From a phage, in assembly GCA_024975835.1 (NCBI GenBank), contig GCA_024975835.1_4840.3: a stretch of 18,253 nt of DNA. One strand, 5' to 3'. A program made the translations under genes and the position numbers. Numbering within the stretch: position 1 is the first letter of the stretch; the number at the start of each line of letters is the position of its first letter. Below the pieces are notes generated by a model that had not been told where the DNA came from, did not search any database, and was given only the letters and a program-made list of their open reading frames with translations. Positions 7,657 through 8,746 of this stretch are shown here, piece by piece.

Positions 7657-7748
7657 CGTAGAAAGTTAATATTCACGCAAGTTCGCGCTCCGCTTGGTCG
7701 CGCACCTTATAACACTAAGGTGTTAACTTTCTTTTCAATAAAAAGTAG

Positions 7749-7777
7749 TTTACATCTATGAAAATGCAGTATATTAT
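7749..7777 (+). promoter_or_regulatory. Sigma70 / T4-early-like promoter: -35 TTTACA (7749-7754, as GTTTACA), 17-nt spacer, -10 TATTAT (7772-7777), with an AT-rich upstream region
   Basis: Read directly; sits in the largest intergenic region (7657-7845) about 70 nt upstream of gene 7846..8685; GTTTAC at -35 is characteristic of T4 early promoters. Confidence 0.5.
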
Positions 7778-7845
7778 GTTCTCACTACACAGTCAGAACA
7801 ACAATATGCCGCGGATACGGTCTTAATAACGAAAGGGTTTTTATT

Positions 7846-8685
7846 ATGTCATATATTCTTCATGTGGATTCTGGAACCAAAATTGAAATTGAAGGCAAAG
7901 ACGTTGCTGCTATTCAGGCTGAAATCAAAGAAGCAGGTCTGATCATCGGAAACGTTACCCTGCGCCGTATGGTTGAAGGTGTTCTTCAGGCTGCCAACGG
8001 CTTCGAACTGATTGAAGGTCTGAGCGCCGAAGAGAAGGAAGAAACTCAGCAGGCTCTGGCGCAAGCCCAAGAGCAAGCCCAAGCTGAAGTATCCCTGAAA
8101 GTCGCTGAAACCGTTGATGCTGAAGCACCGATCTCTGCCGATGCATGTGAAGCCCCAGTGTCCGACGCCCCGGTAGACGCGGTTAAAGATGCAGTCAACG
8201 CGGCGCTGGAAGAAGGCAATCAGCCGTCCGACGCGAAAATCGGTTCCTTAGCGTCTTCTATGCTGAAAGAAGCATCGAAGGGTAAGACCCTGACCCCGCA
8301 GGCAGCGCTGGTAGAGCGTAAACGCCGTCACACCAAACGTGAGGAAATGGTTGACTTGGCTCGCGCTTCTAATCACGGTCCGGTCTTGGCGGCGATTGAA
8401 GCTGGTGTTGTCCCCGGCGTGTTCCTGAGCTACGTGAACCCAGACATGCGTTGGTTCCAGTTCCCGGTCACCGAACTGGCTAACCCTGAAAACCTTCACG
8501 CCCGCACCAATACGTATGTCGACGTTGCGCCTATCGTTTCCGGTGGCTGGGGCTTCAGTCTGTACGTGAACGGCAAGTCCTTCACCAAACGTCAGAAGAT
8601 CAAAGAGTCTGATGCTGAGTCTCTGGTTAAGGCGATCAATGAATGGCTTCCACAGGCTCTGGCTGAAGCGAAAGCTGCTGCGTAA
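7846..8685 (+). CDS. Hypothetical early protein (279 aa): N-terminal domain, acidic Ala/Glu/Gln-rich low-complexity linker, C-terminal domain
   Basis: ORF bracketed by the promoter at 7749-7777 and the terminator at 8716-8746; appears GC-richer with host-like codon choice by eye; no recognised family. Confidence 0.65.
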   Translation: MSYILHVDSGTKIEIEGKDVAAIQAEIKEAGLIIGNVTLRRMVEGVLQAANGFELIEGLSAEEKEETQQALAQAQEQAQAEVSLKVAETVDAEAPISADACEAPVSDAPVDAVKDAVNAALEEGNQPSDAKIGSLASSMLKEASKGKTLTPQAALVERKRRHTKREEMVDLARASNHGPVLAAIEAGVVPGVFLSYVNPDMRWFQFPVTELANPENLHARTNTYVDVAPIVSGGWGFSLYVNGKSFTKRQKIKESDAESLVKAINEWLPQALAEAKAAA

Positions 8686-8715
8686 TTTAAGTTCAGAAAC
8701 TGTTCAAAAGATGAA

Positions 8716-8746
8716 GGGGCTGCTATAATAGCAGCTCCTTTTGTTT
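8716..8746 (+). terminator. Rho-independent terminator: stem GGGGCTGCTA / TAGCAGCTCC (one G-U pair), loop TAA, then TTTTGTTT; a TATAAT hexamer (8724-8729) is embedded in the hairpin
   Basis: Read directly; lies between the stop of gene 7846..8685 and ATG 8760. Confidence 0.6.

Follow-up and report, generated by a model that had tools for sequence, protein, structure and literature searches.

Promoter-early stem-loop (PeSL) cassettes have been described in T4-type phages (Arbiol et al. 2010, PMC2839356; Comeau et al. 2014, PMC4122927), mainly in hyperplastic regions, by variable ORFans and as recombination hot spots (PMC2839356; PMC4122927), and the published early promoter consensus of the T4/PST type is TTTACW-N17-TAYWAT (PMC4122927). 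These papers did not cover the Ackermannviridae, i.e., neither ViI nor CBA120 is mentioned (PMC4122927). We here describe a comparable arrangement in an 18,253-nucleotide stretch of phage DNA (NCBI GenBank assembly GCA_024975835.1, contig GCA_024975835.1_4840.3; this whole stretch is hereafter called the window), centered on a plus-strand gene at 7846..8685 (the target gene) that starts with ATG and encodes a protein of 279 amino acids (29.8 kDa, pI 4.9) belonging to PHROG 3905. As in PeSLs, a stem-loop (7660-7732) lies directly before a TTTACW-N17-TAYWAT promoter and flanks a single small gene, and copies of the cassette occur elsewhere, before a paralogue and before an ADP-ribosylase operon (four strict intergenic copies in Salmonella phage vB_CECAV_050, PQ306799.1, 149 kb, hereafter the nearest genome). 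Unlike in PeSLs, however, the cassette frames a universal, positionally fixed core gene rather than a variable ORFan, and the element downstream of the target gene carries a -10 inside the terminator loop. Overall, our analyses indicate that the target gene very probably constitutes an early, monocistronic transcription unit whose design favours high expression and whose product is a core protein absent from virions.

The 1.6 kb surrounding the target gene match 229 phage records in total and show 99% identity to vB_CECAV_050 and approx. 91% identity to Shigella phage Ag3; because of these identities, the window is regarded as a segment of an Agtrevirus (Ackermannviridae, ViI-like phages). The target gene corresponds to gp061 of Ag3, ORF047 of LIMEstone1 and orf076 of CBA120, and is annotated as "hypothetical" in all three.

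The initial annotation had proposed that the gene has a T4-early-type promoter of its own in the 189-nt intergenic region upstream, and this proposal held up. The -35 hexamer TTTACA (7749..7754, plus strand, preceded by a G at 7748) and the -10 hexamer TATTAT (7772..7777, plus strand) are separated by a 17-nt spacer; the resulting TTTACA-17-TATTAT promoter (7749-7777) matches the sigma-70 consensus at 10 of 12 positions and agrees with the early consensus of the T4/PST type. One 10/12 match by itself does not exceed chance expectation in the window, where 29 sites scored at least 9/12 compared to 21.6 +/- 4.6 in shuffled sequences. A -35/-10 pair was nevertheless found at the same position in all 11 orthologous loci compared (about eight genera, Vibrio phages included), with TTTACA, TTTACG, TTTACT or TTGCGC as the -35 hexamer, drift of the -10 hexamer to TATATT, TATAGT or TATAAT, and spacers of 15 to 17 nt; a TATATT that overlaps the -10 in the window (7770-7775, 15-nt spacer) is the form that other genera have as well. 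The strict early motif occurs six times in the 149 kb of the nearest genome, and four of these copies fall in the 7.2% of the DNA that is intergenic (binomial P ~4e-4), where they precede the target gene, its paralogue (a PHROG 3764 gene) and, twice, the operon with the RNA-polymerase ADP-ribosylase. The target promoter is thus credible because of its consensus fit, its conservation in 11 loci and the intergenic bias of the strict motif. In addition, the authors of the LIMEstone1 annotation independently showed ORF047 as flanked by an early promoter and a terminator, this promoter being among only five early promoters that they proposed genome-wide.

Directly 5' of the -35 hexamer, an A/T-rich tract (TTTCAATAAAAAGTAG; 7733..7747, plus strand), which has one mismatch to ATTCAATAAA, resembles an UP element and may function as one; it is conserved in Ag3, LIMEstone1 and CBA120, while the other genera have a different sequence that is also A/T-rich. 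The upstream boundary of the unit is formed by a terminator-like structure (7660..7740, plus strand), in which an outer stem (7660-7670/7722-7732) surrounds two small hairpins, one of them at 7702-7723, and is followed by a T run. This branched structure (7660-7732) has a folding energy of -22 kcal/mol (z = -3.3), its hairpin at 7702-7723 was present in the terminator scan, and the sequence of 7660..7740 is conserved in Ag3, LIMEstone1 and CBA120; it is predicted to end transcription of the preceding late unit (gp2, orf6611 and orf7375). The putative 5' leader of approx. 62 nt (7784..7845, plus strand; start placed from the position of the -10) contains a Shine-Dalgarno-like GAAAGGG (7831-7837) 8 nt 5' of the target ATG, and appears unstructured, being no more folded than shuffled sequences (-9.5 kcal/mol, z = +1.1). 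A search of Rfam returned nothing relevant and no match for the leader, and an exact motif scan of the window found no T4-type late promoter (TATAAATA) upstream of the target gene. The only exact copy of this late motif in the window is located at 5824-5831 on the minus strand, immediately upstream of the minus-strand gp54 gene.

At its 3' end, the target gene is followed by a predicted intrinsic terminator (8713..8751, plus strand) with a 13-bp stem (6 GC pairs), a 3-nt loop and a T-rich tail, i.e., a G+C-rich hairpin and then a U run as expected of this class. The hairpin alone (8713-8741) has a folding energy of -19.7 kcal/mol (z = -5.3), and the terminator ranks best in the window. A stable hairpin with a U run was found at the same place in all six orthologous loci that were folded, even though the sequences differ in the Serratia, Erwinia and Vibrio phages; this conservation was judged on individual folds, as covariation pair counts were uninformative (the alignment mis-registered two divergent sequences). 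Taken together with the terminator-like structure upstream, these data bear out the earlier view of an insulated unit with its own terminator.

The same terminator carries a perfect match to the extended -10 motif TGCTATAAT (8721..8729, plus strand), which spans the 5' arm and the loop of the hairpin and has two matches in the window compared to 0.28 expected. Approximately 50 nt around this hairpin-borne -10 are almost invariant from Agtrevirus to Taipeivirus, and in phages Sma3M (Serratia 3M) and Ea2809 (Erwinia), where the sequence of the terminator stem differs, TATAAT is kept. The Ag3 record annotates the equivalent of 8721-8729 as a putative extended -10, and there is no space for another promoter 5' of the ribosome-binding site (8750-8753) of the next gene, which encodes a 5-hydroxymethyldeoxyuridine (5-hmdU) DNA kinase. 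The hairpin-borne -10 is thus probably the promoter of the downstream operon with the kinase and a thymidylate-synthase-like enzyme. A transcript starting approx. 7 nt past this -10 would be without the 5' arm of the hairpin and therefore would not terminate itself; if this promoter activity is real, the target gene is truly monocistronic and its neighbours are driven separately. A box, TTCAAAAGAT (8703..8712, plus strand; TTCAATAGAT in other genera), is located 11 nt upstream of the hairpin-borne TATAAT; the nearest genome contains five boxes of this kind in total. Of the 73 TATAAT sites in that genome, five belong to intergenic hairpin-TATAAT elements, in which a ATTCAATAAA-like box is located 9-13 nt 5' of the TATAAT and a proper -35 is missing; they are found before SSB, the kinase gene and three hypothetical genes. 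In the window, G+C-rich hairpins with TATAAT in or near the loop occur at 3721-3738, 8713-8741 and 14947-14975 (boxes at 3707-3716, 8703-8712 and 14936-14945, respectively), immediately 5' of ssb, the 5-hmdU kinase gene and orf14997. The hairpin-TATAAT elements may represent a phage-specific, possibly middle-type, promoter class that is fused to terminators.

The initial view of the target gene as the sole gene here with a promoter of its own went too far, given these elements before ssb, the kinase gene and orf14997 and a perfect sigma-70 promoter (TTGACA-16-TATAAT, 12/12) at 1207-1180 on the minus strand. The latter is located within the coding sequence of the plus-strand gene 1038-1568 and is directed at the baseplate hub gene, a gene that would be expected to be late. 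Folding of a read-through RNA also revealed an outer 9-bp stem (8697-8705/8751-8759) that pairs the Shine-Dalgarno region of the kinase gene, such that read-through transcripts might be poorly translated while transcripts from the hairpin promoter would be free of the outer stem. Sequestration of the kinase ribosome-binding site was rejected as a general feature, as, by eye, the outer stem is conserved in Ag3 and LIMEstone1 and absent from CBA120 and KpS110.

Codon usage was assessed with the codon adaptation index (CAI), using the E. coli weights of Sharp and Li 1987. With a CAI of 0.508, the target gene ranks highest among the 24 genes of the window (0.344 +/- 0.060 for the other 23) and is located 6.3 z units above the same protein recoded with the pooled codon usage of the window, in agreement with the host-like high-expression codons that had been noted by eye. 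In the nearest genome its CAI ranks 9th among 130 genes, on a par with the tail sheath and higher than SSB and the clamp; the values for the capsid protein, tail sheath, SSB and clamp are 0.641, 0.507, 0.484 and 0.483, respectively. Codon optimisation is a conserved trait of this gene, since in five other genera the CAI of the orthologue is also the highest or tied-highest among its neighbours. The accompanying description of the gene as G+C-richer and host-like was correct in its first part, as a G+C content of 0.535 is the highest of the 24 genes (window, 0.485), but misleading in its second, as the G+C content at third codon positions (GC3) is not elevated (0.529, lower than in most neighbours); the G+C excess therefore stems from amino acid composition (16% Ala, plus Gly and Pro codons). 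Overall, promoter class and CAI, i.e., sequence and comparison, support the suggestion that the protein is made early and abundantly.

The target family was found in 343 phage records, all of them Ackermannviridae-like, with hosts in Salmonella, Escherichia, Klebsiella, Dickeya, Serratia, Erwinia and Vibrio, and in none of approx. 1,400 other T4-like phages. A search with UvsX gave 281 records with at least 60% identity, which is approximately the number of enterobacterial records that carry the target. In an exhaustive profile search of 1.84 billion protein representatives the family comprised 29 clusters at 50% identity, and this search as well as word-indexed searches for wider homologues returned the same closed family only, with no names and no Pfam domains. 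On the records searched, the target is thus a family-specific core gene of the Ackermannviridae, present in essentially every genome, and among the relatives compared its position is fixed, i.e., it always comes first in a block of nucleotide-metabolism and recombination genes. The initial annotation had named homology to a virion structural protein as evidence that would speak against it; no such homology was found, and LIMEstone1 ORF047 (73% identical to the target) is absent from the 39 virion proteins identified by mass spectrometry. The proteome of phiD3 comprises only 10 proteins and is uninformative on the target. Neither detection in particles nor a late promoter thus marks the target as a virion structural protein.

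Consistent with the two domains and low-complexity linker initially read from the sequence, the target protein consists of an N domain (amino acids 1-58; 7846-8019) with beta-beta-alpha-alpha-beta order and an N-terminus, MSYILH, that is conserved in all orthologues, a long helix followed by an acidic low-complexity linker (amino acids 59-152; 8020-8301), a stretch with the basic motif ERKRRHTKRE and an invariant Arg160 (amino acids 153-176; 8302-8373), and a C domain modelled as alpha+beta (amino acids 177-279; 8374-8682). AlphaFold2 supported the two domains, with predicted local distance difference test (pLDDT) scores of 83-90 in the N domain and 70-89 in the C domain, confident stretches (80-90) at amino acids 1-60 and approx. 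165-279, and pLDDT <50 in amino acids 87-163. In alignments of the family, both domains have a fixed length while the linker ranges from 37 to 127 amino acids with a mean net charge of about -12 and 12% identity. The core of the C domain (amino acids 177-270) has a fixed length of 94 amino acids and is 81-98% identical to the window copy in 16 closer relatives, compared to identities as low as approx. 56% for the whole protein in the same genera. The target protein has a net charge of -13, and nearly all family members are acidic. Orthologues that are 88-97% identical to the target vary from 269 to 299 amino acids in length; in an aligned orthologue of 288 amino acids, the additional residues fall within the linker, a location that points to frequent slippage in the low-complexity repeat of the coding sequence. 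Two open reading frames (ORFs) of 112 and 222 amino acids seemingly take the place of the intact gene in phage EspM4VN.

The protein matches the full-length profile of PHROG 3905 (E 7.3e-136), and the N and C domains each match this profile separately. Searches of Pfam, PHROGs, NCBIfam, PADLOC and PDB sequences with the single sequence, a 23-member profile and each domain found only PHROG 3905, a family with no assigned function, and Pfam hits were absent for the whole protein, the C domain alone and all 23 family members. Fold comparisons, which rest on models from shallow alignments, gave modest matches for the C domain (7-14% identity), led by type III secretion chaperones and also including YbjN-like proteins. 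Compared to class I type III secretion chaperones, YbjN-like proteins (AmyR, DR_1245, Tll0839) and PsiB, the C domain shows no sequence similarity beyond this 7-14% identity and no Pfam match; its modelled order is alpha-alpha-beta4-alpha rather than the canonical alpha-beta3-alpha-beta2-alpha, and it is part of a longer modular protein. These fold likenesses point to modules that bind proteins, and no catalytic site is apparent from them. A by-eye reading of the N domain as an excisionase/MerR-type winged helix received no support from the fold search. The N domain was not found in other architectures, i.e., only truncated copies of the PHROG 3905 and 3764 families were recovered, a weak negative as few candidates were scored.

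When the N-domain profile was compared to all ORFs of the nearest genome, a single other protein was found (E 1.5e-5; BLASTP 3e-4), i.e., the product of gene 077 (162 amino acids; PHROG 3764; PQ306799.1 54544-55032, minus strand, outside the window; LIMEstone1 ORF073). Profile-profile comparison of PHROG 3905 and PHROG 3764 with hhalign gave a probability of 82% and E 1.1e-5 over 58 columns, and the N domains share the motif G-x-x-T/S-L/F-x-x-L-L-x-G ... G-F. A C-terminal paralogy suggested by similarity by eye was not supported (hhalign local E 0.006, probability 6%). Compared to the target, the PHROG 3764 protein is without the acidic linker and has a C-terminal half that is not demonstrably related. 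With 354 records, PHROG 3764 is family-wide like the target family; between Agtrevirus and Kuttervirus its protein is 95% identical, compared to 56% for the target. LIMEstone1 ORF073 is absent from the virion protein list, and the CAI of gene 077 (0.700) is the highest in the nearest genome, above that of the capsid protein. Gene 077 is preceded by a stem-loop terminator of its own and then a TTTACT-17-TATTAT promoter, and followed by a hairpin without a clear T run. The target is thus, as predicted here, one of two related single-gene early units, and as the N domain is common to both proteins, the two presumably contact the same partner.

We tentatively favour the interpretation that the target is a stoichiometric, non-enzymatic binding or tethering protein that is made from a monocistronic early unit and acts on a conserved partner. 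Under this hypothesis, host sigma-70 RNA polymerase would initiate at the T4-type early promoter immediately behind the late-gene terminator, transcribe the short unstructured leader and a single gene with optimised codons, and be released at the strong intrinsic terminator. Transcription of the downstream operon (5-hmdU DNA kinase, dUMP-hydroxymethylase-like enzyme, dNMP kinase and others) would probably begin anew at the extended -10 in the terminator loop. The protein itself would not be an enzyme; the N domain common to the target and the PHROG 3764 protein would bind the partner shared by both, the C domain, modelled as a secretion-chaperone/YbjN-like alpha+beta sandwich after a conserved basic helix, would bind a second partner or dimerise, and the acidic disordered linker of freely drifting length would serve as a flexible spacer. 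As the gene is universal in the family and heads a DNA-metabolism block, this partner is likelier to be a component that all hosts have in conserved form, or one of the phage, than a strain-specific defence system; candidates would be the replication, recombination or nucleotide machinery of the phage, or a universal host machine (RNA polymerase, nucleoid). Several points weigh against this hypothesis. The paralogy is backed for 58 residues alone, at an hhalign probability of 82%, and not for the C domain; the activity of the hairpin-borne -10 as a promoter is a prediction, and Sma3M is without the TG of the extended -10. Moreover, a missing family match is no proof of missing catalysis, synteny in a largely collinear phage family is weak evidence of functional linkage, and the early promoter class, being common to the ADP-ribosylase operon, suits host takeover equally well. 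A literature search found no expression, interaction or phenotype data for family members, and no transcriptome or infected-cell proteome of any Ackermannviridae phage.

Host takeover or anti-defence, as initially suggested, would have the protein act as an abundant early inhibitor, e.g. with a linker that imitates nucleic acid or an acidic tail of the host and folded domains that clamp the inhibited component, and this appears rather doubtful on balance. The host-type early promoter, of the same class as that before the RNA-polymerase ADP-ribosylase operon, the net charge of -13 in a nearly uniformly acidic family and the high codon adaptation are all in its favour. Among abundant acidic early phage proteins, T7 Ocr (gene 0.3) and others are likewise encoded by genes with strong early host-type promoters and act stoichiometrically, as the target may. 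However, Ocr is a folded dimeric DNA mimic, whereas the acidity of the target is confined to a disordered linker (pLDDT <50) that is not conserved in sequence, and no relation in sequence or fold was found, i.e., Ocr, ArdA and Arn, the DNA-mimic anti-restriction proteins considered, were all absent from the target's sequence and fold search results. The target also matched none of the anti-defence or defence families searched (PADLOC, Pfam). Known anti-defence genes are usually variable and accessory, and Ocr-like genes are not core genes; the target is a core gene with conserved domains of fixed length that keeps its position in phages of hosts from Vibrio to Salmonella, which argues somewhat against takeover as well. 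A role in nucleic acid binding, in which the basic helix and C domain would bind DNA or RNA and the acidic linker would auto-inhibit by competition, seems unlikely. Such a protein could coat or organise phage DNA, a role that would fit its abundance, or recognise the box-plus-hairpin TATAAT promoters instead of MotA/AsiA. The conserved basic motif with the invariant Arg160 beside the C domain is consistent with this role, as are the five intergenic cassettes that combine a ATTCAATAAA-like box with a hairpin TATAAT and are without a proper -35, and the annotated gene set of the nearest genome contains neither MotA nor AsiA. On the other hand, the whole protein is acidic, an activator needs no SSB-like abundance, and the tie to the hairpin cassettes is pure speculation.

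That type III secretion chaperones lead the fold matches of the C domain could also point to a morphogenesis chaperone, which would hold extended segments of virion proteins (tailspikes, capsid), as the secretion chaperones do effectors, and would itself remain unpackaged. The target is non-virion yet abundant, and the late genes gp2 and gp54 are nearby; with a modest fold match, an early-type promoter only (no TATAAATA upstream) and a gene that heads a DNA-metabolism block, this role seems highly improbable. Finally, T4 internal and scaffold proteins are acidic and abundant as well, and the target showed very weak PHROG matches to portal and major-head families (E 0.2-0.4). These matches fall within the biased low-complexity linker, and absence from the LIMEstone1 virion proteome together with a sigma-70 rather than a late promoter has largely refuted a virion or injected internal protein, which is hardly credible. 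We further hypothesized that all Ackermannviridae possess a so far unrecognised immediate-early system of which the target and the PHROG 3764 protein form the two halves. As the two top-expressed pre-replicative proteins, they would dock one partner (host RNA polymerase, nucleoid or nascent phage DNA) through the shared N domain, and the long form would tether a second activity via its C domain. Such a system would be a family-specific counterpart of the early takeover or middle-mode (MotA/AsiA) machinery of T4, possibly tied to the box-plus-hairpin TATAAT promoters; we consider it improbable as a whole.

Public records already contain annotations of the gene and of its promoter and terminator; the present analysis adds the quantitative case for very high expression, the description of domains and folds, the paralogy with PHROG 3764 and the reading of a promoter in the terminator. 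The target protein is without a characterised relative, its closest being the uncharacterised PHROG 3764 paralogue, and both are "hypothetical" in all 40-60 records listed of the approx. 350 that carry each. Members of the Ackermannviridae (ViI, CBA120, LIMEstone, Klebsiella Taipeivirus) are in wide use for phage therapy, biocontrol and typing, and their early programme is essentially unmapped. In codon optimisation, the target and its paralogue rank near the top of their genomes, and they hold two of the four strict intergenic early promoters of the nearest genome, which makes them obvious first choices for functional work on this programme. Should the target prove to be a generic replication accessory, the result would be of modest weight; as a takeover factor, it would establish how the family gains control of the cell. 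The promoter-in-loop terminator would be a compact regulatory device that could be reused in engineering, and would explain the expression of a single gene far above its neighbours.

In annotated relatives, the gene order 5' of the target is baseplate hub (minus strand), RuvC-like resolvase, gp33, SSB, tail-tube initiator gp54 (minus strand), gp2 and two hypothetical genes, which places the late genes gp2 and gp54 near the target on its upstream side; on the 3' side the target is followed by a P-loop kinase, a thymidylate-synthase-like enzyme, a dNMP kinase, a dUTPase-like enzyme, an ACT-like protein, UvsX, gp41 helicase and RecT. The 3' neighbour of the target (8760-9419, plus strand) is the 5-hmdU DNA kinase gene (PF18748, E 1.6e-108). 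A role of the target in thymidine hypermodification, an idea that came from this adjacency, was rejected, as ViI gp67, gp160, gp226, gp243 and gp247 suffice for 5-NeOmdU in lysates (PMC5889632); this five-gene reconstitution omits the target, and the target matches none of those families. In the RefSeq records of Ag3, CBA120, LIMEstone1 and others, the kinase gene is labelled "terminase small subunit"; the true small terminase adjoins the large one elsewhere in the genome. The ORF list starts the kinase gene with a TTG at 8748; a start at the ATG at 8760, which GGAG (8750-8753) precedes, is likelier. A symmetric hairpin between ssb and gp54 (4824-4843) resembles a bidirectional terminator and is so annotated in Ag3. 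Between the dUTPase-like gene and uvsX, the gene at 11582-12124 (plus strand) encodes a protein of 180 amino acids that is labelled "hypothetical" in relatives and matches the recently defined Pfam family "Phage ACT-like domain" (PF24021, E 1.7e-79).

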